Positions 6,424 through 30,510 are shown, counted from the stretch's first letter. The stretch: 64,000 nt of DNA from Bacteroidaceae bacterium (GCA_963639875.1 CAVHWP010000004.1:33168-97167); one strand, 5' to 3'. Notes: generated by a model not told the origin, from the letters alone. Numbers and translations are program-made.

Positions 6424-6699
6424 ATGCATAAAACGAACGGGTATGGCAGTAACGGATATGAACTTAGAAAAGCGGCCGGACTATACTGGCTGCTTGCTCT
6501 GCAACAGAGCGGAGAGAAGTATAAGCCGCCCCTGGTAATGAATGGGATGGGGGCTGTGATTTTTAAGTATCGGCAGATGGGTGACAATGAAGAAGAGATT
6601 ATCAGAAAAATCAGCAGCCGTTATGATACCGATCCGGATACCCTGAGGAGGGATGTAATCTCTTTTCTAAAGAAGCTGAAAGAATACGAGACAGAGTAA
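6424..6699 (+). CDS. PqqD family / RiPP recognition element (RRE) protein
   Basis: 91 aa; pattern LVMNGMGAVIF...EEIIRKISSRYD...LRRDVISFLKKL matches the PqqD winged-helix layout. Confidence 0.75.
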   Translation: MHKTNGYGSNGYELRKAAGLYWLLALQQSGEKYKPPLVMNGMGAVIFKYRQMGDNEEEIIRKISSRYDTDPDTLRRDVISFLKKLKEYETE

Positions 6700-6717
6700 G
6701 AAAGGTGCACGGAAAAG

Positions 6718-8898
6718 ATGAATATTCTGTTAATAGGGGGATGCAGCAATGTTATCAACAACCTTATTATCAAATTAAATAAAGAAGGTCACAGAATTTA
6801 TCTTCTGACAGGTAACCGCTATGACAAGCAGCCCTACCAGAAGGTTTTTGAGAAATATTATTTTCCGTATGATGCTAGCTGCTTGAATGAAATTTTTGAA
6901 AGCATCAATCCCGACCTCACGATTTTTATGGGGGCCTGCGATACGAATTTCCATTGGGAAAACGAGGAGTCAGAGGCAGTGCGTTATTCTGCCTGTATGA
7001 TGAATATCCTGATGGCGTATGCGATGAAAAATAAGGGACGGTTTATCTATCTTTCTTCAGATGAGGTGTATCAGGGAGATTTTCCGGAAAATATTCCCGA
7101 GGAAATGCCCACTACCCCCCAGGGGTTTAAGAGCATGGTGCTTTCCCAGGCAGAGGAAATGTGTGAAAGCTATGGGAAAAGCTGCGGCAGGGATATTATA
7201 GTTCTACGTCTTGACCATCTGTATTCCATGCCGGATACTATGGCGGATGTCACCGATGTCTGCACGAAGATGTGTCTGGAGTCTTTGGACAAATATGTCA
7301 TCACAACAGATGACAACAATACGTTTTCCCTGCTATACGTTACGGACGCGGTGGAATATCTGTACAGGCTTGCCGTCTGTGAAACACATAAATACCATTT
7401 ATATAATATGTCTTCGGAAACTCCCATCACAGAACGGGAACTTGCGGAATTAGTACGTAAATATATGTGGTTCAATGTGGAAATTGTATCTGTGGGCACC
7501 AATAAGAAACGCAGGATTTTGTCTGCCTCACGCTTTGCAGAGGAATTCGAGCCTTCGTTTCTGTGTGATACCCAGCATGTGGTGGCAAGAATTGTTGCCC
7601 GGATGAAGAAGTACCGCCATATTTTCCTGTATGGAGAAAAGAGGAAGAAAACTGTCAGGGAAAGATTACTGGAACGGGCGGGCTGGCTTACCAGAACGGC
7701 TATCCCCTACATAGAAAACGGTATCTGCTTTGTCATTTTCTTTATGCTGAACAACAGGGCAGTGGGCAGTAAATATTTTCACAGTCTGGATTTTTACCTG
7801 CTGTATGTTCTTCTGTTTGCCATTGTGTACGGACAGCAGCAGGCGACCCTTTCCGCAGCACTGGCAGTGGCAGGGTATTGCTTCCGCCAGATGTATGACC
7901 GGAGTGGTTTTGAACTGATGCTTGACAGCAATACCTATGTATGGATAGCCCAGCTTTTCATTCTGGGGCTTGCGGTAGGGTACATGCGTGATTACATTAC
8001 CAAGCTGAAAAGGGAGCATAAGGAAGAAAAGGAATTTTTAAGCCAGCAGCTTCAGGACATCAAGGAAATCAATGACAGCAACGTGCGGGTAAAGGATGCG
8101 CTGGAAACCCAGATTGTGAATCAGAACGACAGTGTGGGCAAGATTTACAGCATTACTTCTTCCTTAGACCGGTACAGCCAGGAGGAAGTTCTTTTCTATG
8201 CGGCGGAAACGATTGCCAGACTGATGAAAAGCAAGGATGTGGCAATTTACACCGTATCCGGCGGCGAATATGCCAGATTGTTTTCGGCGACTTCTTCCAG
8301 GGCAAGAAGCATGGGAAATTCCATCCGCTACAGACAGCTTGGAGAAATGTATGATATGCTTAGCTCCGGAAAGGTGTTTATCAACCGGAAGTTAAATGAC
8401 AATTATCCTCTTATGGCAAATGCCATTTCCGAAGAAGATGAAATCCAGATGATTATTATGATATGGGGCATCCCGTGGGAAAGTATGACGTTGGGACAGG
8501 CAAATCAGCTTGTGGTAATCAGTGCTCTCATCCGCAATGCGGTGGTGAGGGCAAACAAATATCTGGAAGCTTTGGAAGAGGAACGTTACATTGACGGCAC
8601 CAAGATTCTGGACGAGGAGGCATTTACCACGCTTGTCAATGCCTATCTTACAGCGGAAAGGAAGGGGCTTACTGAATGTATCGTGCTGAAAGTGGAAACG
8701 GCACCGGATATTACCTACAAGGAGCTTGCCATGCGGATTTCCGCTAAATTGCGCCATCAGGATTACGTGGGACTTTTGCAGGACAACAGCCTGTACGTGC
8801 TGCTTTCCAATGCCGGAAGACAGGACGCAGCGCCGGTTATGGAACGACTGTCCGCTATTGGCTGTAAAAGTGAAATTGTGGAGGAATATGAGCGATGA
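6718..8898 (+). CDS. pelD: PelD-like protein: degenerate SDR/epimerase + TM + GAF + degenerate GGDEF
   Basis: N-terminal Rossmann-like MNILLIGG, YLSSDEVY; central TM block; C-terminal RHQD (RxxD); first gene of a pelD-E-A-F-G order. Confidence 0.7.
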   Translation: MNILLIGGCSNVINNLIIKLNKEGHRIYLLTGNRYDKQPYQKVFEKYYFPYDASCLNEIFESINPDLTIFMGACDTNFHWENEESEAVRYSACMMNILMAYAMKNKGRFIYLSSDEVYQGDFPENIPEEMPTTPQGFKSMVLSQAEEMCESYGKSCGRDIIVLRLDHLYSMPDTMADVTDVCTKMCLESLDKYVITTDDNNTFSLLYVTDAVEYLYRLAVCETHKYHLYNMSSETPITERELAELVRKYMWFNVEIVSVGTNKKRRILSASRFAEEFEPSFLCDTQHVVARIVARMKKYRHIFLYGEKRKKTVRERLLERAGWLTRTAIPYIENGICFVIFFMLNNRAVGSKYFHSLDFYLLYVLLFAIVYGQQQATLSAALAVAGYCFRQMYDRSGFELMLDSNTYVWIAQLFILGLAVGYMRDYITKLKREHKEEKEFLSQQLQDIKEINDSNVRVKDALETQIVNQNDSVGKIYSITSSLDRYSQEEVLFYAAETIARLMKSKDVAIYTVSGGEYARLFSATSSRARSMGNSIRYRQLGEMYDMLSSGKVFINRKLNDNYPLMANAISEEDEIQMIIMIWGIPWESMTLGQANQLVVISALIRNAVVRANKYLEALEEERYIDGTKILDEEAFTTLVNAYLTAERKGLTECIVLKVETAPDITYKELAMRISAKLRHQDYVGLLQDNSLYVLLSNAGRQDAAPVMERLSAIGCKSEIVEEYER

Positions 8899-9719
8899 AG
8901 AGGCGGTTGAAAAAAAGCCATATTTTTATCCTGATTGTCATGCTTATCTGTCCCGTAGTGGGATTGCTTTTTTTTCTGCTTGCTTTTTTGTGGTATAAGC
9001 TGTTCTTTTCCGAACCTGTGAACCTTGATGATGTCATTTTCAGCAAGGAAAGAGTAAAAGCTTCCGTCCGCGCCGAAGAGGAGCAGGAGAGAAACATGGT
9101 TTCCTTAGAGGAAGCCATTGAAGTTACCAACGAGTCGGATTTGAGGAATCTGATGATGAATATTGTAAAGGGCGATATCCGAGAGTCCTTAGCCTCCATT
9201 TCCCTTGCCTTAAACAGCGAGGATACGGAAACGGCGCACTATGCGGCGAGCGTGCTGCAGGATGCCCTGAACGATTTCCGCATGACGGTGGAAAAACAGA
9301 AAAAGCTGATGGAAGAGGGTGGGGCTGACAGGGCTGTTTATGCGGATATGCTCTTAAACTATATGGATGATGTACTGAAGCAGAAGGTCTTTACGGACAT
9401 GGAGCAGAAAAGCTACGTGGCAGAAATGGACTATGTGGGCGAAGTGCTGTATTCGGAAGCACCGGATGCCATGGGTATTGAACAGATGGAGGCTCTGATT
9501 TTACGGTTACTCGAAATAGAGAATTTTCCTGATTGTGAAAAATGGTGTGAACGCGCCAAAGAGAGATATCCGAATACATTGGCGAGTTATACCTGCAGGC
9601 TGAAGTTTTACTTCAGCAGCGGACAGAGGGAAAAATTCTTTGAAACCATCGAGGAGCTGAAGCATTCGCCGGTGGTGGTAGACAGAGAGACACTGGAGCT
9701 TATCAGAGTTTTCCAATGA
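8895..9719 (+). CDS. PelE-like membrane-anchored helical/TPR-like protein
   Basis: N-terminal TM, ALNSEDTETAHYAAS motif, position between pelD-like and DUF2194 genes. Confidence 0.6.
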   Translation: MKRRLKKSHIFILIVMLICPVVGLLFFLLAFLWYKLFFSEPVNLDDVIFSKERVKASVRAEEEQERNMVSLEEAIEVTNESDLRNLMMNIVKGDIRESLASISLALNSEDTETAHYAASVLQDALNDFRMTVEKQKKLMEEGGADRAVYADMLLNYMDDVLKQKVFTDMEQKSYVAEMDYVGEVLYSEAPDAMGIEQMEALILRLLEIENFPDCEKWCERAKERYPNTLASYTCRLKFYFSSGQREKFFETIEELKHSPVVVDRETLELIRVFQ

Positions 9720-9731
9720 CAGAGGTGGAAG

Positions 9732-11552
9732 ATGATATCTCGCAGAAATTTTTTAATTATCCTCCTGATGATGGGCGTGCTGTTATTTATGTTCCAGTTC
9801 TCCCAGTTAGTGAAGGAAAACGGCAATGACTACGAAACAAATGAATATTACACGACCGGACTTCTTTCCGGGGAGGATGCCTGGCAGCCGGCGCAGGAGG
9901 CTTCTGCATTTGCCTCCGCAGACGGATATGCTCTTTTTGTAGGGGATACGGAAGGCAGTATTGCCAAGACTGTGGAGGAATGGTGCTTTTATGTGAAAAA
10001 AGATCTTCTGTGTGAGGAGCATCTGACGGAAGGAAGAACGCCGGGGCTTCTTTTGGTGGATGGTGCGTCCATTGATTATGCGAAAGAGGAAACAGCCATT
10101 CTTTCCTATGCTTCGGAAGGGGTGCCTGTTGTTTTTTGTTCCCTGCCGGAAGCCTCCTGCATAGAGGAACAGGAGTCCCTGCAGACACTTTTAGGTATTA
10201 CGGAGATAAAAGACGGGAATACGGAAGTGGAGGGAATCCGCCTGTTTGACGGATTTCTTCTGGGCGGTGAGGCAGTATACAAAGCACAGGATCTTGAAGA
10301 AACCGAAAAAATGCAGGATTTTATCCTTACCATGCCCTGGTATGTGACAGGAAAGGGAACCAAGACCTATATGGTGGGACTGAAGGACGAAACTGAGGTG
10401 CAGAGGGAAGAACTTCCCCACATTCTCTGGCGTAACCGGTATGAGGATACCTTTGTGTTTGCCGTAAATGGGGACTACCTGGCGGATATAGCGGGACTTG
10501 GTATTTTAGACGGATTTCTCTATGAGATGCAGGAGATTGCCGTGTATCCGGTGGTCAATGCCCAAAGTGTCACCATAGCGGACTATCCCAGCCTCTCCAC
10601 AGAAACGGATGAGACTATGCAGGCATATTACAGCCGCAGCAGCAGAAGCTTTGTACGTGATGTTATGTGGCCGGGAATTTTAGCCATGTCCTCCCGGCAG
10701 GATTTGAAAATGACCTGCTTTCTGAATGCGGGTTATGAGGGAACCGGTCTTGGTGGGCTGCAGCCGGAGGATCTTGTTTTTTACCTGCAGCAACTGAAAG
10801 AGGCGGGAGCGGAAGCCGGACTGAGCCTGAACCGTGCAGAAGGTATTTCCGTAACGGAGCAGATTGCCGGGACAAGAGGATTGTTAAGCAGAATGGACTG
10901 TGACTATTCCTTCGGAGCGGTTTATGAGGAAAGCGTGTCGGAGGAACTTCGGGAAGACCTGGAGACAAATGCTTATTTCTCCGGTATTCACACTCTGACC
11001 TGCAGGGAAAGGGGAGAAAACTTCCTGTTATCCTATTATACGGACGATGTGACCCTACAGGGGGTGACGGGGGAGGCAGGGACATACAGCTACCGGACGG
11101 ATTTTACCAACAGGAGCCTGGCAACTGCACTTGCCTATTCCAATACGCTGATTGATATGCATCGGATTATATGGCCGGAGACGGAAGACGACCGCTGGGA
11201 AAATTATTTTAACAAGGTATTCAGCAATATCAGCACCTATTACCATACTTTTTCGTTTATGGAGGACACTGCGCTTTCGGTAAGTGACAGCCGTGTGCGA
11301 TCCATGCTTAATCTTTCTTATGAAGTGGTACAGGAGGATAAAGGCATCGCAGTATATGCCTCAGGCATCCAGCAGGAGGCATGGTTTTTGCTGCGTACCC
11401 ACGGACAGAAAATCGCAGATATTACAAACGGCGCATATGAGCAGATAGAACAGGACGCCTATCTTGTTAAAGTACAGGTGGGCGGCACTCATATCCGGCT
11501 GACACAGGCGGATGAAATATTGCAGTACAAAGAGCCTTTTACCATTCCCTGA
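9732..11552 (+). CDS. DUF2194 family PelA-deacetylase-like protein (catalytic motifs appear degenerate)
   Basis: N-terminal anchor, YPVVNAQSVTIADYPS and RDVMWPGI segments, synteny with pelF/pelG. Confidence 0.6.
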   Translation: MISRRNFLIILLMMGVLLFMFQFSQLVKENGNDYETNEYYTTGLLSGEDAWQPAQEASAFASADGYALFVGDTEGSIAKTVEEWCFYVKKDLLCEEHLTEGRTPGLLLVDGASIDYAKEETAILSYASEGVPVVFCSLPEASCIEEQESLQTLLGITEIKDGNTEVEGIRLFDGFLLGGEAVYKAQDLEETEKMQDFILTMPWYVTGKGTKTYMVGLKDETEVQREELPHILWRNRYEDTFVFAVNGDYLADIAGLGILDGFLYEMQEIAVYPVVNAQSVTIADYPSLSTETDETMQAYYSRSSRSFVRDVMWPGILAMSSRQDLKMTCFLNAGYEGTGLGGLQPEDLVFYLQQLKEAGAEAGLSLNRAEGISVTEQIAGTRGLLSRMDCDYSFGAVYEESVSEELREDLETNAYFSGIHTLTCRERGENFLLSYYTDDVTLQGVTGEAGTYSYRTDFTNRSLATALAYSNTLIDMHRIIWPETEDDRWENYFNKVFSNISTYYHTFSFMEDTALSVSDSRVRSMLNLSYEVVQEDKGIAVYASGIQQEAWFLLRTHGQKIADITNGAYEQIEQDAYLVKVQVGGTHIRLTQADEILQYKEPFTIP

Positions 11553-11585
11553 CAGAGGGAAAGGCGGCAGCAAAGGAGAAAAGTC

Positions 11586-13007
11586 ATGAAAATCTGTATG
11601 GTGGCGGAGGGCAGCTACCCATACGTGGTCGGTGGGGTATCCGGCTGGATTCACAGTATGGTTAAAGCCTTTCCGCAGCATGAATTTATCATATTGGCAA
11701 TAATCTCCGACAGGAAGCAGAGCGGAAAGTTTCAATATGAAATGCCGTCAAATGTATCGGCGGTGTATGAGGCTTATCTGAATGATGTGGACTGGTCAAA
11801 GGTAAAACACAAAAAAATAAAATTAGATAAGAAGCAGTACCGTGCATTGCGAAGCGTGATTTTGGGCTACAAAACGGATTGGGATACGTTGTTTGCCATG
11901 TGTCAGAAGAAAGATTTTTCTATTGATGCGTTCCTGATGGGAGAGGACTTTTTTCATGTGGTGGAGGAATGCTATGAAGCAAAATATTCCCAGATTGTTT
12001 TTTCGGATTTTTTGTGGACCATGCGTTCCATTTATCTGCCGTTATTCCTGATTCTGCACACTAAAATTCCCAGGGCGGATGTGTATCACTGTGTGGCTAC
12101 GGGTTACGCCGGTGTTTTAGGAGGCATGGCACAATATCTGTACAACTGCGGGCTTCTGGTATCGGAACACGGAATTTATACCAGAGAAAGGGAAGAGGAA
12201 ATTCTGAAGGCCTCCTGGGTCAGCGGTATTTACAAGGATATCTGGATTGAGCAGTTTAAGAAGATGTCCCGGCTTGCTTATGACAGTGCGGATGCCGTGA
12301 CAGCGTTGTACGGACATGCCAGAAAGCTGCAGACAGAACTGGGCTGCGACAGCTCCATCACACATGTGACGCCCAACGGTATAGACGTGGACAGTTTTGC
12401 AAATATTCCCGGCAGACAGCCGGAGGACGAGGGCTTTATCAATATCGGTGCCGTTTTACGTGTGACACCCATTAAGGATGTCAAGACCCTGATAAGGGCA
12501 TTTTCGTTTGCAGCGGAGCGTGTGCCCAATTTAAGGCTTTGGATTATGGGTCCTTGTGACGAGGATAAAGAATATGCACAGGAATGCTACGAGCTGGTAG
12601 AGGTACTGGGGCTTAAAAATGTGATATTTACCGGAAGAATACAGGTCAGGGAGTATCTGGGGAGGATGGACTTTACCATTCTTACCAGTATCAGCGAGGG
12701 GCAGCCGCTCACTATTCTGGAAAGCTTCGCTGCACGCAAACCGGTCATTGCAACGGATGTGGGAAACTGCCGGGAGCTTATTTACGGGGAAGAAGGGGAC
12801 AGTTTCGGAACTGCCGGCATTTTAACCCATATCATGAATACGGAAGAATTGGCAGAGGCAATGCGGAAGCTGGCGCTTTCTCCGGAACTGCGGCAGGAAA
12901 TGGGAGAAATCGGATGCAGGAGGGTCAATACCTATTACCGGATAGAACAGATGAGGGAGAAATTTGACAGCCTGTATAAAGAAGTGTACCCGGGTATGGA
13001 GGAATAA
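11586..13007 (+). CDS. pelF: GT4 glycosyltransferase PelF
   Basis: EGSYPYVVGGVSGW, SEHGIYTRERE, RVTPIKDVKT, SISEGQPL motifs. Confidence 0.92.
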   Translation: MKICMVAEGSYPYVVGGVSGWIHSMVKAFPQHEFIILAIISDRKQSGKFQYEMPSNVSAVYEAYLNDVDWSKVKHKKIKLDKKQYRALRSVILGYKTDWDTLFAMCQKKDFSIDAFLMGEDFFHVVEECYEAKYSQIVFSDFLWTMRSIYLPLFLILHTKIPRADVYHCVATGYAGVLGGMAQYLYNCGLLVSEHGIYTREREEEILKASWVSGIYKDIWIEQFKKMSRLAYDSADAVTALYGHARKLQTELGCDSSITHVTPNGIDVDSFANIPGRQPEDEGFINIGAVLRVTPIKDVKTLIRAFSFAAERVPNLRLWIMGPCDEDKEYAQECYELVEVLGLKNVIFTGRIQVREYLGRMDFTILTSISEGQPLTILESFAARKPVIATDVGNCRELIYGEEGDSFGTAGILTHIMNTEELAEAMRKLALSPELRQEMGEIGCRRVNTYYRIEQMREKFDSLYKEVYPGMEE

Positions 13008-13009
13008 GA

Positions 13010-14467
13010 ATGGCGGGAATTGGTGTCAAACTTAACAGAATATACAGTAAGAATACCATCGCATCCAGCCTGATGGGCTTCGGTTACAGTACGGTCATTA
13101 CCGTCGCACCGATGTTTCTGGTGATTGCGGCGGTTATGGCCATGCAGTTTTTGCTCGGCTTTTCCTCGGTTGGTTACGCACAGAGGGAACTGTATTCCTG
13201 TACGGTGCTTTACATTTTTGTGTTTGCACTGCTGACGGCATCGCCCTTTAATGCGGTGCTGTCCAAATATATGTCGGATGTGATTTACGAAGAAAAGTAT
13301 GAAAATATCCTGCCCTGCTATTATGTGGGGCTGCTTCTGAATACTCTGTTTGCCGCATTGCTCGGCATTCCCTTCTGCATTCACGAGTACACGGTGGGAA
13401 AGGTGGATATCCTCTTTGTTTTTGCAGGATACTGTGGATATATGGCTCTGGTGTTTGTTTTCTACTCTATGCTTTATCTTTCCATCTGCAAGGTGTATAA
13501 AAAGATATCAGGCTTCTTCCTGATAGGAATGGGGACGACGGTACTGCTTTCCCTTATTCTTACCAGGATTTTCCGCTTGAGCGTTATTTATTCCATGCTG
13601 CTTTCCCTGGATGTCGGATTCATGCTGATTGCCAGTCTGGAATATGCGCTGGTGCGGAGTTATTTCCGGCAAAGCAGTGACCGGTATGCGGATGTACTCC
13701 GGTATTTTAAGAAATACTGGCCTCTTGTGGTGACGAATTTTCTTTACACAATGGGACTTTATATGCATAATTTTGTATTCTGGGGTACGGAGGAGCATCT
13801 GGTGGTAGCGGACAGCTTTGTGTGCATGCCGACTTACGATATGGCGACCTGTCTTGCCATGTTTACCAATATTTCCGCCAGTGTCATTTTTATTTCCCGT
13901 GTGGAAATGCACTTTCATGACCGTTACAAGAAATATTCGGAGGCGGTTATAGGCGGCAGGGGTATGGACATCCGTATTGCCAGACAGAGGATGTTTGAAC
14001 AGCTTTCCGATGAACTCCTGAATCTGGTTCGTATCCAGTTTATTGTATCGGTAGTGGTATTTTTCCTGTGTACGGTCTTTCTTCCCCGGTTGGGACTGGG
14101 TGGCTTAATCATGCAGATATACCCATGTCTGGCAGCCGGCTACTTTATTTTATTTATTATGTATGCCGCCATTATTTTCCTGTACTATTTTAATGACCTT
14201 GTGGGTGCGGTGCTGACGGCAGCAAGCTTTACCGTGGTTACACTGTTAGGGAGTCTGTTTTCTTCCACCCTGCCGGTCATATGGTACGGCATGGGACTGG
14301 TGGCAGGCGCACTGGCGGGCTTCTGTGTGGCATATGACCGCCTGCGTACCATGGAAAAAACTATGGACATCCATATTTTCTGCAAAGGCAGTCTGATGAA
14401 GAAAGGAGAAGGCAGATGTCCTTCTAACCTTGTCTATGAAAATAAGGCTGCGGGGAGGAGGCACTGA
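13010..14467 (+). CDS. pelG: Pel exopolysaccharide transporter PelG
   Basis: N-terminal MAGIGVKL, polytopic membrane protein, follows pelF. Confidence 0.9.
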   Translation: MAGIGVKLNRIYSKNTIASSLMGFGYSTVITVAPMFLVIAAVMAMQFLLGFSSVGYAQRELYSCTVLYIFVFALLTASPFNAVLSKYMSDVIYEEKYENILPCYYVGLLLNTLFAALLGIPFCIHEYTVGKVDILFVFAGYCGYMALVFVFYSMLYLSICKVYKKISGFFLIGMGTTVLLSLILTRIFRLSVIYSMLLSLDVGFMLIASLEYALVRSYFRQSSDRYADVLRYFKKYWPLVVTNFLYTMGLYMHNFVFWGTEEHLVVADSFVCMPTYDMATCLAMFTNISASVIFISRVEMHFHDRYKKYSEAVIGGRGMDIRIARQRMFEQLSDELLNLVRIQFIVSVVVFFLCTVFLPRLGLGGLIMQIYPCLAAGYFILFIMYAAIIFLYYFNDLVGAVLTAASFTVVTLLGSLFSSTLPVIWYGMGLVAGALAGFCVAYDRLRTMEKTMDIHIFCKGSLMKKGEGRCPSNLVYENKAAGRRH

Positions 14468-14844
14468 TGGAACCCGGTTTACTGCTTCAGATTATTATGA
14501 TTCTGACGGGAGTTTTTCTCCTGATAAGAACGATTTCTTCCCTGGCAAGGCGACGGATGACAGAGCCTTTCTGCCTGACCTGGGGACTGGTTGCTATCGG
14601 CATTATTCTGGCCGGCTGCCTGCTCCGGCCGGCAGGCTGGAACCAGTACATCAGCTATACGGGCATGGTTCTTCTTATTCTGATTGGCTTCTGCCTTTTG
14701 TACGGTGCCTATTTTATAAGCTGCAGGGTATCCGAACTGATGCGCCAGAACAATGAACTGGCAATACAGGTATCTTTGTTAAAAGAGGAAGTAGGCAGAC
14801 TGCAGGAGGAAAGTAGGAAAATTCATGGCAATCAAAGTTCATAA
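14467..14844 (+). CDS. DUF2304 family small membrane protein
   Basis: 3 TM segments then VSELMRQNNELAIQVSLL coiled coil. Confidence 0.75.
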   Translation: MEPGLLLQIIMILTGVFLLIRTISSLARRRMTEPFCLTWGLVAIGIILAGCLLRPAGWNQYISYTGMVLLILIGFCLLYGAYFISCRVSELMRQNNELAIQVSLLKEEVGRLQEESRKIHGNQSS

Positions 14845-16054
14845 AATTCTTTTTGTCATCAATACGCTGGGACAGGCGGGAGCCGAAACGGCGTTGCTTT
14901 CCCTGCTGCGGACACTGACAAAAGAGGGAAGAGAAGCCCGGTATGAGATTTCGCTTTATGTGCTTACGGGACAGGGAGAAATGGTATCCCGGCTGCCGGA
15001 GGATGTGAGGCTCTTAAATAAGGAATACAGGGAAGAGTCGGTGCTGACGGCAAAGGGACGTAAGTACCTGAAAAAGAAGGCCATGAAAGCCATGTTCACC
15101 GGTGGGACGGTATGTAAGCTGTTTCCCTATCTGGTAAAAAATGCCTGTACCATGCTGAAGAAAAAGAGGTTTCTTCCCGACAAGCTGTTGTGGCGTGTTC
15201 TCTCTGACGGTGGGATGGTATTGCGTGAGGAGTACGATTTGGCGGTGTCCTATCTGGAAGGTGGGGCGGCTTATTTTGTGACTGACCATGTAAAGGCGGC
15301 GAAGAAAGCGGCTTTTATCCATGTGGACTATGAGAAAGCAGGTTACACAAGAGCCCTGGACAGGGACTGTTATCTCAAATTTGATAAAATTTTTACTGTT
15401 TCGGACGAAGTGAGGGAAGCGTTTCTTAAAGTGTACCCGGAGCTGCCGGGCAAAACGGAGGTGTTCCACAATATCCTGAACAAAGAGGAAATTGTACGGA
15501 GCGCGTGTGAGGGAGAGGGCTTTACGGACGGCTTTACCGGCATACGTCTGCTTTCAGTGGGGAGACTTACCGTACAAAAGGCATATGAGGTTTCCGTGGA
15601 GGCGATGAAACGGCTGAAGGATAAGGGCGAAAATGTAAGGTGGTATGTTTTAGGAGAAGGCGACCGGCGTAAAAAGCTGCAGAGCCAGATAGATGCCTTG
15701 GGACTGACGGAGGATTTTATCCTGTACGGTGCCGTGAACAATCCCTATCCGTTTATGAAGCAGGCAGACATTTACGTGCATGCCAGCCGGTTTGACGGAA
15801 AAAGCATTGCCATACAGGAGGCACAGATTTTGGGGAAGCCCATGGTGGTGTCGGACTGCAGTGGCAACCGCGAGCAGGTATGTCCGGGAGAGGATGGTCT
15901 GATGTGCGACCTTAATCCCGAAAGTCTGGCAGATAAAATTATGCTTCTTATAGAAGATGAGATACTGCGAAGAAAATTAGGTTCTGCGGCAGCAGAGAAA
16001 AACGCGGATGCCAAAGAGGAAATTAAAAAAATACTTTCCATGCTGAAAGGGTGA
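14825..16054 (+). CDS. GT4 family glycosyltransferase
   Basis: GQAGAET, SVGRLTVQKAY, NPYPFMKQADIYVHASRFDG...EA. Confidence 0.88.
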   Translation: MAIKVHKILFVINTLGQAGAETALLSLLRTLTKEGREARYEISLYVLTGQGEMVSRLPEDVRLLNKEYREESVLTAKGRKYLKKKAMKAMFTGGTVCKLFPYLVKNACTMLKKKRFLPDKLLWRVLSDGGMVLREEYDLAVSYLEGGAAYFVTDHVKAAKKAAFIHVDYEKAGYTRALDRDCYLKFDKIFTVSDEVREAFLKVYPELPGKTEVFHNILNKEEIVRSACEGEGFTDGFTGIRLLSVGRLTVQKAYEVSVEAMKRLKDKGENVRWYVLGEGDRRKKLQSQIDALGLTEDFILYGAVNNPYPFMKQADIYVHASRFDGKSIAIQEAQILGKPMVVSDCSGNREQVCPGEDGLMCDLNPESLADKIMLLIEDEILRRKLGSAAAEKNADAKEEIKKILSMLKG

Positions 16055-16062
16055 CTTTCGTT

Positions 16063-18151: not shown

Positions 18152-18172
18152 AGGAAAAAAGGAGGAAACACC

Positions 18173-20644: not shown

Positions 20645-20657
20645 AAGGAAAAAAAGC

Positions 20658-22124
20658 TTGGCAGAACAGGTGAAACGCAGGCAAAACAGAATAAGGAGGG
20701 CACTGCGTTTTTCTGCCGTGATGCTTTCTTTTGTCATTCTTTTTACAGGTCTGTTCATTGCCTGGGGCAGAAAGAGAGGGCATGGCAGAGTAACATTTTC
20801 AGCGGAACAGTTTACGGAGTCCTCCCGGTATTTGTCCAATCCTAACCGGGGTTTTTATCATATATATGGTTTTATGATTACGGATACAGCTGTGGCGTGG
20901 AGTGAAACGGAGGCAGATCAGTTTCAGGAGGATACCGGAACCAATCTGACCATGCTCCAGATAAATCTTTGCAATTACCGGGACAGGGAACTGACAGAGC
21001 AGGGGCTTGACAATATCCGCAGTCTGTTTCAGGCATTCCGGGGAACGGGCAGGCAGCTCATTGTGCGTTTCCTGTATGACTGGTCGGGAGAAAATATGAA
21101 AACGGAGCCGGAAGATATCTCCATTATTCTGCGGCATATGGAACAGGTCGGCTCCATTGTGGCAGAAAATGGGGACATCATTTTTACCCTGCAGGGGCTG
21201 TTTACCGGTAACTGGGGGGAAATGAACGGTACCCGTTACAACACGGCAGAGGACTGGCATAATCTGTACGAAGCCTTAAGGACGGCAACCGGTGACAGTG
21301 TGTTTCTTGCGGTACGGATGCCCATGCAGTGGCGGAATGCCACCGGTTTTACGAAAATTCCCGAGGCACTTGAGGACGGCTGCCGGCTGGGACTTTTTAA
21401 TGACGGTATTCTGGGGAATTACAGCGATTACGGCACGTATGGGGATGCCTCCCACAGGGAGGCGGGGGATTTTTCCTGCTGGAACCGGGAAGAAGAACTG
21501 GCTTTTCAAGAGGAACTTTGTGGATATGTTCCCAACGGTGGCGAAGTGATTGTGGATAATTCTTACAATGACTGGGAAACAGCTATGGAAGACCTTGCCA
21601 TTATGCATATCAGCTATCTGAATGCGGACTATGACAGAGAGGTTCTGAAAAAGTGGGCAGCTGCCACGGCAGAGGAAGAAGGCTGCTACCTGGGAATGGA
21701 TGGTCTGTCTTATGCAGAAAGACATCTGGGCTACCGGCTGCTGATAAAACAGGCACGCGGGGAATATCATTTCTGGAAGGACGTACTTTCCGTACAGATA
21801 GATTTACAGAATGTGGGTTTTGCGCCGATTTTAAAAGAGGCAGTCCCGGAGGTTCTTGTTGTGAACGAATATACTGGGGAATGCCGGAAAATCCGGTTGG
21901 ATGCGGATTTGACCTTTTTGACGGGCGGAAGAAAAGCAGAGCGGACAGCAACAGGTACGGCGGACATTTCCCTGACCGGCTGGCAGCCCGGTTTTTTACG
22001 GGTATACTTCCGCCTTACCGATAAAGCCAGTGGCAGACAGATATCTTTTGGCAATGAGCAGAATCCGACAGAATACGGTTACTATCTGGGCACTGTAGAG
22101 CTGAAAAGCCTGAAATGGCGGTGA
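20658..22124 (+). CDS. Membrane-anchored DUF4874/DUF4832 putative glycoside hydrolase-like protein
   Basis: N-terminal TM; NPNRGFY, GNWGEMN, GLFND...DYGTY, PNGGE, HLGYRL. Confidence 0.7.
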   Translation: MAEQVKRRQNRIRRALRFSAVMLSFVILFTGLFIAWGRKRGHGRVTFSAEQFTESSRYLSNPNRGFYHIYGFMITDTAVAWSETEADQFQEDTGTNLTMLQINLCNYRDRELTEQGLDNIRSLFQAFRGTGRQLIVRFLYDWSGENMKTEPEDISIILRHMEQVGSIVAENGDIIFTLQGLFTGNWGEMNGTRYNTAEDWHNLYEALRTATGDSVFLAVRMPMQWRNATGFTKIPEALEDGCRLGLFNDGILGNYSDYGTYGDASHREAGDFSCWNREEELAFQEELCGYVPNGGEVIVDNSYNDWETAMEDLAIMHISYLNADYDREVLKKWAAATAEEEGCYLGMDGLSYAERHLGYRLLIKQARGEYHFWKDVLSVQIDLQNVGFAPILKEAVPEVLVVNEYTGECRKIRLDADLTFLTGGRKAERTATGTADISLTGWQPGFLRVYFRLTDKASGRQISFGNEQNPTEYGYYLGTVELKSLKWR

Positions 22125-23509
22125 ACTCCTACAGTGCCGGAAGCAGGTGCTCCGGAAACGATGATGGTGGGAAAGTTGTGACAGAAAGGCAGATTTTTAT
22201 GGAAAGGGCAGATAAAGAGGCAGCCTGTCCCAATAGGGAAGAGCAGGAACTGCTCCGGCTGCTGAAAGCGGCATTGACAGAAAATCCGAACCGGGAAAGT
22301 ATAAACAGTTCAAGGCAGTCGGACGATATAGATTATGAAAAGGTGTTTGCCATGGCACAGGCACATCAGGTACTTCCGCTTCTGTATGATACACTGGAGA
22401 ACGCACCGGAAATTGATTTGTACGAAGAAAATGGGAAAGCATACGGCACATTCCGGACAATCTGGCAGCAGGCAGCCAGACAGACGGTGAGCCAGAATTA
22501 TCATCTTCTGTTTACCGGCAAATTTCTCACAGGGCTTTTGCGGGAGGCAGGCATTCCGGTAACACTGTTAAAGGGAACGGCAACCGCAGCTTATTATCCG
22601 GTACCTGAACTGCGTAAATCAAGTGATGTTGATTTATATCTGCTGGAGGAAGGGGATCTGCCCACAGCCAGGACGCTCTTTTTAATGCACGGCATGACGG
22701 TAAAGGAAGAACAGCATTCCCTGCACCATCTGGTGATGCAGACTGCGGAAGGAATTATTGTGGAGCTTCATACCCTGATAACGGAGCCGTTTGACAGTTC
22801 CGCCGTGAATGCCCATCTTGAGGGGTGCCGGGACATTTTCGCCGCCCACACGGAGGAGAAGGAAATCATGGGGGTCGCACTGCCGGTGCTGACAGGCGCC
22901 TGCCACGCATACGAGCTGCTTCTTCACATGCTGCAGCATTTTCTGCGGGCCGGATTTGGCTTAAAACTGCTCTGTGACTGGGTGGTTTTCTGGAAGGCGG
23001 GATTATCAGAGGAAGAACAGACGCTATATGAAAGGCTCATAACGGAAAGCGGCATCAAGGGCTTTTCTGATGTAGTAACGGGTGTCTGTGTGGAATATCT
23101 GGGTCTGCCGGAAGAAAAAGTAAGCTTCATGCAGGCTGGCTGCGGCAGAAAAACGACAGTAGGACACGATACAGGAAACAGAGCGGCAGAATGTATCCTG
23201 CGGGAGGATTTTTTGCGGGATGTTCTGGAAAGCGAGGAATTCGGCAATACCTCAGCGGACAGAATGGTAGCAATGAGAGGCAGCGGACTCGGCGCATACA
23301 TACGGGAGTTTCACCACCAGATGCATTTGAATTTTCCGAAAGCCGGAAAATGCCTTCTGCTCTGGCCCCTGTTCTGGTGCATTACGCTGCTGCGTTTTCT
23401 TAGGAATAACCGGAAAATCAGGCATACTTCCGCTGTGGCGGTGTTTAAGAATGCCGGAAAAAGAGGCAGACTGGTAAAGAAACTCTCCCTGTTTGAAGAC
23501 AGAGGATGA
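22115..23509 (+). CDS. Nucleotidyltransferase family protein (NTP_transf_5-like); true start may be at 22199
   Basis: LLKG...YYPVPELRKSSDVDL, VELH, HF..GFGLKLLCDW motifs. Confidence 0.85.
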   Translation: MAVNSYSAGSRCSGNDDGGKVVTERQIFMERADKEAACPNREEQELLRLLKAALTENPNRESINSSRQSDDIDYEKVFAMAQAHQVLPLLYDTLENAPEIDLYEENGKAYGTFRTIWQQAARQTVSQNYHLLFTGKFLTGLLREAGIPVTLLKGTATAAYYPVPELRKSSDVDLYLLEEGDLPTARTLFLMHGMTVKEEQHSLHHLVMQTAEGIIVELHTLITEPFDSSAVNAHLEGCRDIFAAHTEEKEIMGVALPVLTGACHAYELLLHMLQHFLRAGFGLKLLCDWVVFWKAGLSEEEQTLYERLITESGIKGFSDVVTGVCVEYLGLPEEKVSFMQAGCGRKTTVGHDTGNRAAECILREDFLRDVLESEEFGNTSADRMVAMRGSGLGAYIREFHHQMHLNFPKAGKCLLLWPLFWCITLLRFLRNNRKIRHTSAVAVFKNAGKRGRLVKKLSLFEDRG

Positions 23510-23548: not shown

Positions 23549-23577
23549 TTGACACAGGGTAAATCATATTTTAGAAT
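23549..23577 (+). promoter_or_regulatory. Sigma-A promoter for the 148-aa leader-bearing gene
   Basis: TTGACA (23549-54), 17 bp, TAGAAT (23572-77). Confidence 0.75.
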
Positions 23578-23657: not shown

Positions 23658-24104
23658 ATGAAAAAGTATGAAAGTCCCATTATTATTGAAAATGAAGATT
23701 TGGCAGAAGGCATTTATGCCAACAGTGGAGTAAATCCTGACAATGTGGATGAACCGCAGTGTTGGACGCTTGCTATCACAAAGGATCAGGTGGTTGCACA
23801 TGAGAAGTGGGCAAACTACCGCATTCATGCAACACATATCGGAACGGTACATATTTCCACAGCATCCATGGTAACGATTGTTTTCAGCCAGGAAATTACC
23901 AGTGCTAATTTTGAAGGATTTGGTGTCAGCATAAACGGCTGCACCGTTACTCTTACCAGAGAGCAGCACGGCAATGCATATTCCTGTAATGATGATTACA
24001 ATTCACTGCTGAAGGTTTATTGTAATGATCCGGAAAGTCTCTATGTTGTTTCTTCCACCATTTCCTGTACAAAGACGAAAAATGTGCAGGGCGGCGAAGA
24101 CTGA
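23658..24104 (+). CDS. 148-aa hypothetical protein with RRE-type leader (MKKYESPIII...EDLAEGIYANSG); candidate substrate/precursor
   Basis: RBS AAAGGAG 8 nt upstream of the ATG; YxxP plus hydrophobic motif; no hydrophobic Sec h-region; 5 Cys in a beta-rich body. Confidence 0.7.
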   Translation: MKKYESPIIIENEDLAEGIYANSGVNPDNVDEPQCWTLAITKDQVVAHEKWANYRIHATHIGTVHISTASMVTIVFSQEITSANFEGFGVSINGCTVTLTREQHGNAYSCNDDYNSLLKVYCNDPESLYVVSSTISCTKTKNVQGGED

Positions 24105-24182: not shown

Positions 24183-25901
24183 GTGAATATGCAGCAGACG
24201 TGGAAACGAATTAAATGGATTGGCAGCTATGCCGGACGACATATCTGGGCAATTGCAATATATACGCTTTTGGGACTTGCCGGTACCGGCATTTCCCTTT
24301 TGGGAAGCCTTGTATCCAAGGATCTGGTTGATATTATCACTGGACATGAGACTGGACAGGTTATTATGACATTCTGTATCATGATGGGTATGAATTTGGG
24401 AAGTGTGTTCCTGAGCCAGATTTCCGGTTATATTTCCGTCAAAATCAGTATGCGTGTGGATGCCGGTATTAAGGCAGATATTTTTTCCAAGATTTTAGTA
24501 ACGGACTGGGAGTCTCTGACAGAGTATCATACCGGTGATTTACTGACCCGTTGGAATGGGGATGCTTCCAATATTGCTTCGGGTGTTCTGAGTTTTATTC
24601 CTAATTTAATCATCTATATTTTTCGTTTTGGAAGCGCCTTATGGATGGTGCTTTATTATGATGCATCATTTGCCGTGTTTGCCCTTGTAAGTATGCCGCT
24701 TTCTTTTTTTATGTCCCGGTATCTGACGAAAAAAATGCAGAAAAACAATAACCGGAGTGCGGCTATGAGTGCGAAAATGTCCGGCTTTAATCAGGAGGCA
24801 TTTTCCAATATCCAGACCATTAAGGCTTTTGATATGATTTCCCTATATATAGAAAGACTGAAAAATCTGCAGACGGAATACATTGCCATGCGTATGAGTT
24901 ACCAGAAAATGAGTATCGTTATTTCTGTTATGATGACATTAATCGGCATGGCAGTTTCCTATGCTTCTTACGGATGGGGAATTTACCGGGTATGGAGCGG
25001 AGCTATCAGCTACGGTACCATGACAATGTTTCTGAGCCTGTCAGGTACACTTACAAGCACTCTGAACAATCTGATTTCCCTAATTCCTACCTCTGTTTCT
25101 CTGATGACTTCAGCGGGCAGGCTGATGGATATTGTGGAGATGCCGAGAGAGGACTACAGCAAAAAGAAAGAAGTGAAGGCTTTCTGGGATCGGCATAAAG
25201 AGGAAGGTGTGGGACTTTCCGTTCAGGATGTTTCCTATGCATACCGGAACGGCACTGTAGTCTTTGAACATGCTTTTATGGAGGCTCATCCGCACGAAGT
25301 GGTTGCTCTTATCGGTCCCTCCGGCGAAGGAAAGACCACTATGTTAAGACTTTTGCTTTCCTTAATTTTATCACAGGAAGGCACTGCACAGCTTTGTACA
25401 CGGGAGGAAAATATGCCCCTCAATGCTTCCGCCAGACAGTTGATATCCTATGTACCGCAGGGAAACACCATGTTTTCCGGTACCATTGCGGAAAATATGA
25501 GAAATGTAAAAGAGGATGCTACGGACGAAGAAATCCGGGATGCTTTGGAAATTGCCTGTGCGTGGGATTTTGTAGAGAAACTGCCGGACGGTATCAACAG
25601 CCCGATACAGGAACGAGGCGGCGGATTTTCCGAAGGGCAGGCGCAGCGGCTTTCCATTGCCCGTGCCATCCTCCGTAAGTCTCCCATTTTACTGTTGGAT
25701 GAGGCAACCTCAGCTTTGGATGTGGCAACGGAACGAAAGCTCTTAAAGAACCTGATGAAGGATGAATACCCGCGTACCTGTCTGGTAACCACCCACCGTC
25801 CGACGGTTTTAGAGGTCTGCACCAGAGTGTATGCAATCCGGGACAAACATCTCGAAGTCCTCACGGAAGAGGAGATACAGAAAGAAGAGCAGATGTTTTA
25901 G
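24183..25901 (+). CDS. ABC exporter, fused TMD-NBD
   Basis: TM domain; GPSGEGKTT, FSEGQAQR, LLLDEATSALD; no N-terminal C39 peptidase. Confidence 0.9.
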   Translation: MNMQQTWKRIKWIGSYAGRHIWAIAIYTLLGLAGTGISLLGSLVSKDLVDIITGHETGQVIMTFCIMMGMNLGSVFLSQISGYISVKISMRVDAGIKADIFSKILVTDWESLTEYHTGDLLTRWNGDASNIASGVLSFIPNLIIYIFRFGSALWMVLYYDASFAVFALVSMPLSFFMSRYLTKKMQKNNNRSAAMSAKMSGFNQEAFSNIQTIKAFDMISLYIERLKNLQTEYIAMRMSYQKMSIVISVMMTLIGMAVSYASYGWGIYRVWSGAISYGTMTMFLSLSGTLTSTLNNLISLIPTSVSLMTSAGRLMDIVEMPREDYSKKKEVKAFWDRHKEEGVGLSVQDVSYAYRNGTVVFEHAFMEAHPHEVVALIGPSGEGKTTMLRLLLSLILSQEGTAQLCTREENMPLNASARQLISYVPQGNTMFSGTIAENMRNVKEDATDEEIRDALEIACAWDFVEKLPDGINSPIQERGGGFSEGQAQRLSIARAILRKSPILLLDEATSALDVATERKLLKNLMKDEYPRTCLVTTHRPTVLEVCTRVYAIRDKHLEVLTEEEIQKEEQMF

Positions 25902-26528: not shown

Positions 26529-26533
26529 ATAAT

Positions 26534-27615: not shown

Positions 27616-27641
27616 GGTACATAAAGTTTTACACCAATATG

Positions 27642-28097: not shown

Positions 28098-28275
28098 CTG
28101 GGTTCTCCTAAAATATACAACACAATAAAGTTTTTATCATTTTAACATAAATTTGCTCATAAGTGTAAAAATTATGAAAGTAAGTAAATGAAGCATATTC
28201 GCATGTTAATAAGCATGTAAATATACTTGCATATACATTGACATAATGGTGGTATTAAGAAAAGGAGATGTTTAT

Positions 28276-28542
28276 ATGCCTAATATTAAACCTATTTCTG
28301 ATTTAAGAAATTATACAGATGTACTTAAGGAAGTTGATTTATCCAATCGTGTGTATTTGACGAGAAACGGACATGGAGAATATGCAATACTTACCATGGA
28401 TGAAGTAGATGAACTTGATAGGATAAAAGCAGCATACCTGTTACTCTCTAAGCTGCAAAATGCCGAGAAAAAAGCTGATAAAGAAGGCTGGGTAGATGCA
28501 GATGCGCTTGAAAAGGAATTGGGAGTTAATTCGCACATCTGA
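28276..28542 (+). CDS. Phd/YefM family antitoxin (no cognate toxin downstream)
   Basis: MPNIKPISDLRNY...VYLTRNG; RBS AAAGGAG. Confidence 0.85.
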   Translation: MPNIKPISDLRNYTDVLKEVDLSNRVYLTRNGHGEYAILTMDEVDELDRIKAAYLLLSKLQNAEKKADKEGWVDADALEKELGVNSHI

Positions 28543-28675: not shown

Positions 28676-29902
28676 TTATTCCCCTATCCACTCATCCACA
28701 TATTCTTTCATAACCTCCGCCGCATGATTTGTGGGTGTACAGTGTAGACGGCACAAGGACGTCAGAGAAGTCAGTTTTTCAGCAAAGAAAAGATTTTTCT
28801 CAAAAAGCGCAGGTGTCCAGGAGGGCGTAATCATGCGGTTTGCCAGGGACAAAATCTGCTCGTCCGGGGTGAGCTCTTCCACAAAGTCGGAAGCATCCTG
28901 CTTCAGGAATACAATACCGCCCAGAGGATGGGAAGAGGTGGTGGAAATGCCGGAGGTACCGCACCAGGGAATACCGTGCACCACAGGCGTGTTTTCGGAA
29001 AAAGAGAGCAAATTCAAGTCACCGTTTAACAGGGGTGTACCGAAAGCTTCCTGCCACAAACGGGTATGTGTGGATTTACCGGTGCCGGAAGGACCGGAAA
29101 ACAGGTAAGCCTTGTTTTTATAAAGCAGGGAAGCGGAGTGCAGTACCGTCATTCCTCTTTGCTGTGCAAGGTATAAAAAGCCCAACCGGAGGACATGGAA
29201 AAGAACATCCTGCAAAGAGCCTTTTTCCGAAGGGATGCAGTAGATGCAGAAAAAAGAAGCATCTTTCTTTAAGATTGCTTCGACAAGCAAAGGCTGGTCG
29301 GGGAAAAGAAACAGGTATTCATCCGCCCGATCCATTACGATAAGTTCTTTGTTATGAAGCAGGAGCCTGCCGTTTCCGGCGGAGGCAGGCTTTCCGGCTA
29401 AAACAAGCACGGTCTGGTCAGGAACATTTTGCCGTGATGTGCCGCAGTCCGCCGCTTTTATAGGAGCGGCATTGTCCGGAAAAGCAAACATAGTATCTGT
29501 TGCAAAGGGCAGCAGCGCCGGAGAGAAAAAGGTATTTTCTCCGTATAAAGAAAAGGTCAGTCCTGCAATGGAGAGCGTGTGCCACAGACCGTCCGGACCG
29601 GTGGGAACCGCCATATCGCAAAGAAGCATGCCGCCATTTACTAATTTTTGCAAAAAAGAAAGGGTCTCTTTTTTTATGGTTTCGGCTTCCTGACCGGAGG
29701 CACCGTAGCGGAGCAGAAGGTGGTTTACCACTTCCATAGAGGAATGTTCCGTCTTCAGAAACTCCCAGATGCAGATACCGGTGTTGTTCAGTCTAATCCC
29801 CCTTTTGAGGTCGGCAATACTCTGACCGGTGGGGAGCAGATAGGAAGAGCCGCTTATGGTTTTCAGGATAAAATCGGAATTCTGAATCATGGAATACCTC
29901 AT
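28676..29902 (-). CDS. PqqD/RRE domain fused to an HprK-like P-loop kinase domain
   Basis: N-terminal IRLNNTGICIWEFL...FLQKLVNGGML (PqqD-like); C-terminal LHSAS...LFSGPSGTGKSTH, LNGD, GIPWCG. Confidence 0.8.
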   Translation of the reverse strand: MRYSMIQNSDFILKTISGSSYLLPTGQSIADLKRGIRLNNTGICIWEFLKTEHSSMEVVNHLLLRYGASGQEAETIKKETLSFLQKLVNGGMLLCDMAVPTGPDGLWHTLSIAGLTFSLYGENTFFSPALLPFATDTMFAFPDNAAPIKAADCGTSRQNVPDQTVLVLAGKPASAGNGRLLLHNKELIVMDRADEYLFLFPDQPLLVEAILKKDASFFCIYCIPSEKGSLQDVLFHVLRLGFLYLAQQRGMTVLHSASLLYKNKAYLFSGPSGTGKSTHTRLWQEAFGTPLLNGDLNLLSFSENTPVVHGIPWCGTSGISTTSSHPLGGIVFLKQDASDFVEELTPDEQILSLANRMITPSWTPALFEKNLFFAEKLTSLTSLCRLHCTPTNHAAEVMKEYVDEWIGE

Positions 29903-29994
29903 CTTTCTTGCAGTTATGTACAGTATTTATTATAGCATTAGGACGATAAAAATGCTACAATAACCATAAAAGACAGAAAGTTGAGGAGAAAGCT

Positions 29995-30510
29995 TTGCAG
30001 ACAGAGGCAAAAATAAGCCCGGAGGAGCTGCTTGCGGAGGGCAGAACCATTCAAATAAAGCCTCAGGGTTACAGTATGTATCCATTATTTGTTCCGGGCA
30101 GGGACAGTGCAGTGATAGCACCGCCGGAGAAATGCGGCGGGCAAAGTGCAAATCTACGGTACCGCAAGGGGGATGTGGTGCTATACCGGGGAGAAGGACA
30201 GAAGCTGATTTTACATCGGATATGCCGTCTGAAAAAAGAGAAAAACGGAAGCACGGCTTATTATATGGCGGGAGATAATCAGAGCAGGCTGGAGGGTCCT
30301 ATTTATCAGGAACAGATAAAGGGAGTGCTTGTGGCAGTTATCCGGAATGGAAAAACATTTACCGTAAACAATCTGATTTACAGGGCGGTTTTTACTGTGT
30401 GGCGCTGGCTGCGGCCTGTCCGCCCACAGATAGCGGGAACGGCAGCAAAAATAAAAAGGAGCAGAATAAAAACAGATGCAGGGGATGAATATGGGAAACG
30501 TACAGAGTGA
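29995..30510 (+). CDS. S24/S26 family serine peptidase-like protein
   Basis: GYSMYP, KGDVVLY, LHRI, GDN motifs. Confidence 0.8.
   Translation: MQTEAKISPEELLAEGRTIQIKPQGYSMYPLFVPGRDSAVIAPPEKCGGQSANLRYRKGDVVLYRGEGQKLILHRICRLKKEKNGSTAYYMAGDNQSRLEGPIYQEQIKGVLVAVIRNGKTFTVNNLIYRAVFTVWRWLRPVRPQIAGTAAKIKRSRIKTDAGDEYGKRTE

Follow-up and report, generated by a model that had tools for sequence, protein, structure and literature searches.

A 64,000-nt window of contig CAVHWP010000004.1 (33168-97167; assembly GCA_963639875.1, Bacteroidaceae bacterium) carries, between positions 6424 and 30510 counted from the start of the window, six genes that are interspersed with, or adjoin, a Pel-like polysaccharide block. 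They supply two RRE domains (recognition elements of peptides that are made on the ribosome and modified after translation, RiPPs), a kinase, an S26 peptidase, a nucleotidyltransferase, an ABC exporter and one precursor. On balance we consider it probable that this is an enzyme set of the type that makes linear polyphosphorylated peptides (LPP), acting on a leader-bearing precursor: the leader would be bound, Ser23 phosphorylated, the leader cut, a sugar added, and a protein predicted to fold like a carbohydrate-binding module (CBM) exported. The six genes named by the original prediction were all recovered, at the starts it gave, by family and profile scans of 61 open reading frames (ORFs) in the window, and its central proposal, RiPP logic operating without a cyclase on a protein that carries a leader and has a mature part predicted to fold, held up.

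The precursor (23658..24104, plus strand) is a 148-residue ORF consisting of a YxxP leader and a predicted beta-sandwich; a genome-wide motif scan returned this precursor only, in single copy. A profile built from 13 leaders collected 41 distinct precursors, a selection that favours conserved positions, and in all 41 the 24-residue leader keeps Y4, P7, E17, S23 and G24 at fixed spacing, with Y or F at position 20; leaders of this type end in EGV(Y/F)xASG. Ser23 is the sole serine common to all precursors. A hydrophobic signal stretch was sought in the 41 and seen in none, and only one of the 41 ends in Ser; searched against the PDB, the leader profile gave chance matches only. By similarity, the 40 distinct mature regions (55-138 residues long) separate into eight unconnected groups (19, 10, 4, 2, 2, 1, 1 and 1 members), which identifies the leader as the shared signal; they include beta-rich and Cys-rich types, two of which often occur within one locus. 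Some leader-bearing precursors (L054:5209-5637, L055:4872-5643, L057:5118-5552) are encoded on a different contig from the cassette, which suggests that cargo can be provided in trans. The profile misses divergent leaders in L083, L084, L087 and G039. In the last of these, a pel locus with a separate RRE and kinase has two short precursors (L155:8646-8900, L155:11301-11585) with a leader of the form WxxP...ENIAASG, a variant that keeps the aromatic-to-Ser spacing.

The stand-alone RRE (6424..6699, plus strand; PF05402, E 9e-10), the first gene before pelD, is LppB-like. Its profile matches LppB (9x8z_B) at E 1.1e-6, about as well as it matches lasso RREs, and N40, D77 and F81 align with N33, D70 and F74 of LppB (D77 conserved in 10/10 sequences, N40 and F81 in at least 9/10). 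A second PF05402 domain, at residues 33-93 of the kinase fusion (28676..29902, minus strand), confirms that both RREs are genuine. As to the proposed HprK-like character of the kinase, a P-loop and His motif are kept (H255, Walker A to K276, D295), while the family scores are weak and under cut-off (ScmC, E 0.002; HprK_rel_A, E 0.03); a single-sequence PDB search with the RRE-kinase gave nothing useful. The soluble SipW/Sec11-type S26 peptidase (29995..30510, plus strand; TIGR02228 E 3e-7, under cut-off) is LppS-like: S27, H74 and D94, invariant in 11/11 sequences, have counterparts in S29, H68 and D93 of LppS, and no membrane segment was detected in its sequence. A phylum-wide search with the peptidase matched 24 of 401 genomes at E 1e-9, and a quick tree, with no LppS-type sequence among its rows, placed 32 of 34 window-type rows in one group (SH-aLRT 94). 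The PF14907 nucleotidyltransferase (22115..23509, plus strand; E 5e-34), LppN/PsmN-like and the sole copy in the genome, has a DxD motif (D171-x-D173) that is invariant in 11/11 and corresponds to D134/D136 of PsmN. The MsbA-type, LppD-like ABC exporter (24183..25901, plus strand; family scan), in which no peptidase domain was detected, shows 53-68% identity between cassettes whose cargo is unrelated.

The closest known system is LPP, not paeninodin. As set out in the available part of the account of lppA-K-B-S-D-N of Paenibacillus alginolyticus (Popov et al. 2026, PMC13381572), LPP clusters combine an SpI peptidase, a free-standing RRE, an HprK-like kinase, a nucleoside triphosphate transferase and an MsbA-like exporter with no cyclase; they lie in capsular polysaccharide loci and have precursors of 35-200 residues with the motif YxxPxVLxHQxIxFETxxS. 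Polyphosphorylation of Ser3 and RRE-dependent cleavage by LppS (S29, H68, D93) were demonstrated, LppN had no visible activity in B. subtilis, and the final product and a biofilm role, the latter only speculated upon, were left open. The window has the same five enzyme types, the kinase with weak family scores, a Ser-His-Asp peptidase, no cyclase, a conserved YxxP leader with a variable C-terminus, a Ser shortly after the leader, and polysaccharide neighbours. It differs in the leader ending, EGV(Y/F)xASG in place of HQxIxFET with the terminal Ser shared; in a Tyr-to-Ser span of 20 rather than 19 residues; in a kinase that bears its own RRE besides the discrete one; in a cargo for which a folded domain closed by a disulfide is predicted, whereas the LppA core is a 45-residue Gly/Asn/Pro-rich peptide; and in its setting, a Pel-type locus of Lachnospiraceae. 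Because the leader departs from the published motif, we file the system as an LPP-like variant and not as a member. By eye, the window peptidase is nearer to small cluster 4 of the LPP paper, whose precursor is "not determined", than to LppS; three Lachnospirales rows of that paper are likewise in minor clusters with precursors "not determined", and the portion of its supplements available to us contains no match for PelG, PF16933, Roseburia, Eubacterium or Butyrivibrio (PMC13381572). The enzyme set, its polysaccharide neighbourhood and precursors of up to 200 residues are thus already in print in the accessible text of that paper; new here are the leader ending, the RRE-kinase fusion together with a second RRE heading a pel operon, the swappable cargo, and a Pel clade that lacks deacetylase motifs and carries a GT-C gene. 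A literature search of open-licence PMC and bioRxiv found no description of a pel-linked cassette or of folded cargo.

By analogy with LPP, the pathway would begin with an RRE gripping the YxxP of the leader, as LppB does, the contact residues being kept. The kinase, which points at the leader because it is fused to an RRE, would then phosphorylate Ser23, taken as the target because no other serine is common to all precursors. An RRE would next present the leader to the S26 peptidase for a cut just upstream of Ser23, leaving phospho-Ser near the new N-terminus; the cut may follow Y20, which would put Ser at +3 as LppA has it, or N22, with an aromatic residue at -3 like F-3 of LppA. In the weakest step, the PsmN-like enzyme may hexosylate the phosphate. 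Finally, the ABC exporter would release the protein without Sec, the C35-C137 disulfide forming outside, and the product would probably act in the matrix or on the surface, in association with the polysaccharide from the neighbouring genes, as its fold and gene position suggest.

We regard as quite unlikely a different course, in which the leader is cut after Ser23 or Gly18, the kinase acts on another substrate, such as a sugar or a Pel subunit, and the protein is exported unmodified. Signal peptidases follow a small-x-small rule, which A-E-G and A-x-S of the leader resemble, and the kinase shows G-D in place of D-D, the pair that we take to be the kinase signature. The kinase-RRE fusion nevertheless directs the kinase to the leader, Ser23 is invariant in 41/41, and the divergent G039 leader has the same aromatic-to-Ser spacing; moreover, unphosphorylated LPP precursor is poorly cut (PMC13381572, available part). 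As to the group added after phosphorylation, the original prediction allowed for nucleotidylation, a nucleoside monophosphate (NMP). PsmN, the characterised enzyme of this kind, speaks against this: the accessible account reports it to be required, through D134/D136, for one or two hexoses on pseudomycoidin phosphate (PMC6993621), so that a hexose and not NMP is the likely addition.

The original prediction had likened the set to the accessory genes of paeninodin-type lasso clusters. Those of paeninodin and pseudomycoidin (PadeK/PsmK, PsmN; PMC8498205 and PMC6993621, available parts) do share an RRE, an HprK-like kinase, a DxD enzyme and an ABC exporter; in place of their cyclase, B2 protease, WxxP leader and C-terminal Ser, the window has a serine-type leader peptidase and a leader family with C-terminal Ser in a single member, and its nearest match is the cyclase-less LPP system. 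A further account, in the part available, treats rumen lasso clusters only (PMC7533575). That the cassette is a remnant of a lasso-peptide cluster, or a helper of a cyclase or B2 protease elsewhere in the genome, is a reading that is largely refuted and that we judge extremely improbable, the shared accessory genes and the lasso cyclases adjoining some relatives notwithstanding. Cyclase, B2 and radical SAM were absent from the 61 window ORFs scanned, as had been claimed. In the genome, which is 100% complete in 50 contigs, there is no B2 protease (PF13471), the only two PqqD domains are both in this locus, and the two Asn synthases, of which one belongs to a different polysaccharide locus and the other sits with housekeeping genes, both retain a glutaminase domain, with no RRE in their vicinity. 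The frames of the cassette are all intact and catalytic residues are conserved. A lasso remnant and a trans-acting cyclase were both rejected; two SPASM proteins on other contigs were set aside as not linked to the locus. Where related cassettes stand beside paeninodin-type lasso clusters (L087:959-13893, L081:10001-19362), a neighbourhood also reported for LPP in Bacilli, those clusters, with cyclase-like genes, have their own RRE, kinase and W-type precursors; L087 additionally encodes a folded-type cargo with a divergent leader. Kinase-RRE-S26 trios are widespread in gut Clostridia and Bacteroidota (L089-L137) without this leader, a close exporter or pel genes.

The cargo of the window was modelled as a nine-stranded beta-sandwich of about 110 residues (mean pLDDT 73; residues 31-140 mostly >70) preceded by a low-confidence leader. 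C35 and C137 are invariant in 16/16, and W36 is the only invariant Trp in the cargo alignment. A terminal disulfide is a CBM2 trait. In fold comparison, CBM2 and chitin-binding domains come first: Foldseek gives E 2e-4, VIA gives Z 9.1 with an rmsd of 2.5 for 96 aligned residues, and the top six VIA rows are all such domains or chitinases (Z 8.6-9.1). The cargo is predicted to be CBM2-like, although other sandwiches score within one Z unit, with glycan binding itself a prediction from the model; family scans gave no Pfam CBM match for it, and an Atlas search with the mature domain returned only unnamed clusters, with scores <0.8. Another cargo family comprises proteins of 73-99 residues that contain 4-5 Cys including CxxC; it (L002:4363-4710, L006:2733-3098, L017:2409-2723 and seven more), could bind metal or form disulfides.

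The polysaccharide genes form a tightly packed plus-strand run (4773-23509; 13 ORFs, inter-gene gaps of -20 to +33 nt) in the order HD-GYP, RRE, pelD, pelE, pelA-DA, pelF, pelG, DUF2304, GT4, GT2, DUF4832, 823-residue protein, DUF4832 and PF14907. Two cassette genes, for the stand-alone RRE and the nucleotidyltransferase, are inside this run. The precursor and exporter genes follow it after a 124-nt gap containing a sigma-70-like site (23549..23577, plus strand; an 11/12 consensus match only, one of 18 in the region, a number not above that in shuffled sequence). The RRE-kinase and peptidase genes form a separate divergent pair, the kinase gene 2.8 kb past the exporter with four unrelated ORFs between. 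The shared operon that had been proposed thus holds for the RRE and nucleotidyltransferase, while the kinase and peptidase lie outside it and the precursor and exporter follow it across the gap.

Assignment of PelF (11586..13007; a GT4 polymerising glycosyltransferase, NF038011 over cut-off) and of PelG (13010..14467; PF16933, E 2.5e-150, an exporter of a divergent "extended" clade in the tree) is certain. PelD (6718..8898; a degenerate epimerase, a membrane part and a degenerate GGDEF with RxxD), PelE (8895..9719; placed by position and similarity to genes there in other pel loci, with no Pfam match) and PelA-DA (9732..11552; DUF2194) were assigned from domain content, order and similarity to same-place genes in canonical loci. 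The locus resembles the Gram-positive pelDEA-DA-FG operon (Whitfield et al., 10.1101/768473) in D-E-A-F-G order, in an epimerase-extended PelD with RxxD, in DUF4832 hydrolases and in a nearby GalE. It differs in the loss of PelA-DA motifs, a separate PelG clade and an added GT2-DUF2304-GT-C module, and the block is thus not a canonical Pel. The available text of Whitfield et al. notes Roseburia pel genes in a larger cluster with glycosyltransferases, a phosphotransferase and a nucleotidyltransferase, product unclear (Fig. S7 legend), and in that text no mention of an RRE or precursor was found (10.1101/768473).

In a quick PelG tree, a canonical clade of 11 rows is separated from an extended clade of 20 rows, including the window, at SH-aLRT 100. 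A canonical DUF2194 protein matches B. cereus PelA-DA (9zau) at E 2e-63, an enzyme that depends on D262/D263, H350/H354 and H488 for its activity and for biofilm (PMC13254593, available part). The deacetylase motifs (DD and HxxxH) are present in 10/10 canonical proteins and in 0/19 of the extended clade including that of the window, a count that omits one partial and one missing PelA-DA gene; the extended-clade PelA-DA is thus predicted to be catalytically inactive. A single-sequence PDB search with the window DUF2194 gave nothing useful. Downstream of pelG the extended block adds a DUF2304 protein (14467..14844; PF10066, GacJ/Rv3632-like, an activator of polyprenyl-phosphate sugar synthase; 10.1101/180810, available part), a GT2 (16051..16833; NF058614 E 9e-20, under cut-off; PpgS/GacI-like polyprenyl-phosphate HexNAc synthase) and an 823-residue membrane protein (18173..20644) with a predicted GT-C glycosyltransferase fold. 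A GT4 glycosyltransferase (14825..16054; family scan) is encoded between the DUF2304 protein and the GT2. The GT-C call draws on Atlas DUF6541/DUF6077 clusters (0.97-0.98) and on a model (pLDDT 74) whose Foldseek ranks 1-26 are all GT-C enzymes (STT3 E 1.6e-5, DPY19 E 9e-4; TM about 0.35); an acidic residue in the first outer loop, D168, is invariant. None of the 13 family members has Pfam support, and a family profile found nothing among PDB sequences or Pfam. This module recalls GacI-GacJ-GacL of the group A carbohydrate and PpgS-Rv3632 (10.1101/180810, in part), which combine a GT2 polyprenyl-phosphate HexNAc synthase-like enzyme, DUF2304 and a GT-C protein; here there is no Wzx flippase in the window, and the acceptor could be the Pel-like polymer or a protein. 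From the lost deacetylase motifs and the added module, the polymer is likely to be neutral and decorated, a non-deacetylated, side-chain-bearing variant rather than canonical Pel. Two DUF4874-DUF4832 proteins (16820..18151, and 20658..22124 with an N-terminal membrane anchor; family scans) belong to a family of predicted glycoside hydrolases (10.1101/2024.04.20.589940, available part).

Loci of the extended clade, which belongs to Lachnospiraceae (window 9732-11552; L003, L007, L010, L014, L017, L018, L020-L022, L030, L031, L039, L138, L140, L142, L149, L151 and L152), carry the GT-C gene, six of them with no cassette nearby, and possibly make a distinct, undescribed Pel-derived polymer. RxxD, present in the window PelD and nearly all aligned homologs, is predicted to bind cyclic di-GMP (c-di-GMP). 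A 7TM-HD-GYP c-di-GMP phosphodiesterase-like gene (4773..6407, plus strand; PF16927 and PF13487, with HD and GYP motifs in sequence) ends 16 nt before the stand-alone RRE and is not at this place in the relatives examined. These two features bear on polymer synthesis, as distinct from control of the cassette.

The linkage was surveyed in 200 other genomes of the family. RRE-kinase matches at E 1e-20 were found in 20, of which 13 scored 8e-48 or better and the next 3.5e-32, and we placed the cut-off for a strong match at this gap. Of the 200, 30 carry pelG; these include 12 of the 13 genomes whose RRE-kinase match is strong and 0 of the 7 where it is weaker. The leader was found in exactly the 12 genomes with both strong RRE-kinase and pelG and in 0 of the other 188, a count for this leader type only; eight of the 12 had fed the leader profile and four had not. 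In 10 of these 12 a single contig holds both kinase and pelG, at a distance of 6-17 kb, and in the other two (G027, G063) the kinase is at a contig end. The association of RRE-kinase with pelG is more than chance, with shared descent as a caveat, and the expected co-occurrence was thus found, with about one origin. One further genome (G111, L012-L013) has a strong RRE-kinase and exporter without pelG, peptidase or leader and represents a decayed copy. A separate scan of species genomes, which may overlap this sample, was taken to the best 80 of at least 600 matches. Among these are 31 close loci, nearly all labelled as Lachnospiraceae or kin, with peptidase in 24, exporter in 25, nucleotidyltransferase in 19 and leader in 17; the 49 distant loci have neither leader (0) nor pel marker (0).

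The survey also bears on the reading that the cassette is an ordinary LPP system producing secreted effectors or signals, which adjoins pel through one mobile polysaccharide island and has no functional tie to the polymer. We think this doubtful, although several observations accord with it: a single origin on the PelG tree with losses in G021 and G067, cassettes without pel nearby, cargo that is hypervariable, partly Cys-rich and effector-like, and the LPPs of Bacilli, which adjoin capsule loci with a patchy history (PMC13381572, available part). Linkage, however, is kept in 12 genomes with 12 genus labels even though the order and orientation of the genes have been reshuffled, pelD is still immediately preceded by the RRE in 8 of 10 relatives with a readable place, the G111 copy that has no pelG is also without peptidase and leader, and the best folds of the window cargo bind glycans.

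Several points weigh against our preferred account, that of an LPP-type set exporting a modified CBM-like protein in connection with the pel block. A pel-block marker is in the flanks of only 15 of the 31 close loci, many flanks being cut short, and in L081, L087 and L083 related cassettes stand beside lasso clusters or other polysaccharide genes, no pel marker being seen in the surrounding 10 kb. All 13 cassette-plus-leader pelG rows fall in one 17-row subgroup (SH-aLRT 95), and the linkage therefore amounts to about one gain; three members of that subgroup (G021, G067, G062) have no linked cassette, and G039 has the variant one. Some precursors sit on contigs other than that of the cassette. 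The kinase family call is weak, G-D replacing D-D in 14/14 close as against 1/6 distant motif-captured kinases, and the second half of the leader, EGVYxASG, differs from the LPP motif IxFETxxS. For the cargo, mu-adaptin, integrin and adhesin sandwiches (Z 8.2-8.6, 7-15% identity) tie with the CBM2 match within one Z unit, a Trp present in some relatives is not conserved, and the structure was modelled for the window cargo, other types being Cys-rich. All steps of the mechanism are, for this organism, predictions by analogy.

A closer tie, in which a phospho-sugar on Ser23 serves as primer or linker between protein and polysaccharide, or the exported protein is a substrate of the GT-C enzyme, so that surface display would need neither Sec nor sortase, we hold to be unlikely. 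The nucleotidyltransferase and one RRE lie inside the pel transcription unit, Stealth hexose-1-phosphate transferases and Wzx flippases flank 9 and 15 of the 31 close cassettes, the best matches of the GT-C model (STT3, DPY19, PglB) act on protein, and for LppN a partner encoded elsewhere than in the core cluster has been proposed (PMC13381572, available part). Against this, Stealth and Wzx are both absent from the window; cassette-free extended-Pel loci have the GT-C gene as well (G021, G067, G062, G098, G014, G079), which fits a polysaccharide acceptor as for GacL; and the TM-scores are only about 0.35, the chemistry itself being predicted. Taken as one scheme, leader-directed phosphorylation, sugar capping, and Sec- and sortase-free export of a folded cargo that becomes attached to a neutral Pel variant decorated by the GT-C enzyme, or primes its synthesis, appears rather unlikely; if true, small folded proteins would become polysaccharide-linked surface glycoproteins, and GT-C decoration would replace deacetylation in forming an adhesive matrix.

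Other features of the window touch the locus more loosely. Between exporter and kinase is a variable insertion (25926-28542) encoding a PF14196 protein, a 169-residue ORF without family, a GNAT protein and a lone Phd-like antitoxin; it spans 2.8 kb here and about 7 kb in the nearest relative (L058), and is absent in most others. A perfect 54-bp tandem repeat of 2.6 copies (26534-26671) lengthens the apparent N-terminus of the minus-strand PF14196 ORF (25926-26684). A UDP-sugar pyrophosphorylase-like gene and galE (34773-37137), 4 kb beyond the peptidase, likely supply UDP-HexNAc. Rfam gave 0 matches in the window at gathering scores, and thus no c-di-GMP riboswitch of known family; GGDEF has 10 matches in the genome.

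That an entire Pel clade has a deacetylase predicted to be dead runs counter to what B. cereus requires and suggests another polymer. A folded substrate with an unambiguous candidate Ser, and with part of its machinery in a polysaccharide operon, makes a link between RiPPs and polysaccharides directly testable, which bears on what LPPs and phosphorylated lasso peptides finally become and do; the carriers include cultured gut species, Fusicatenibacter saccharivorans (L072) and Jutongia hominis (L079). A 24-residue tag that tolerates eight or more unrelated types of cargo could be carried over to other proteins, to phosphorylate or glycosylate them at a chosen site and secrete them independently of Sec, and the system would extend peptide-tailoring chemistry to folded proteins.

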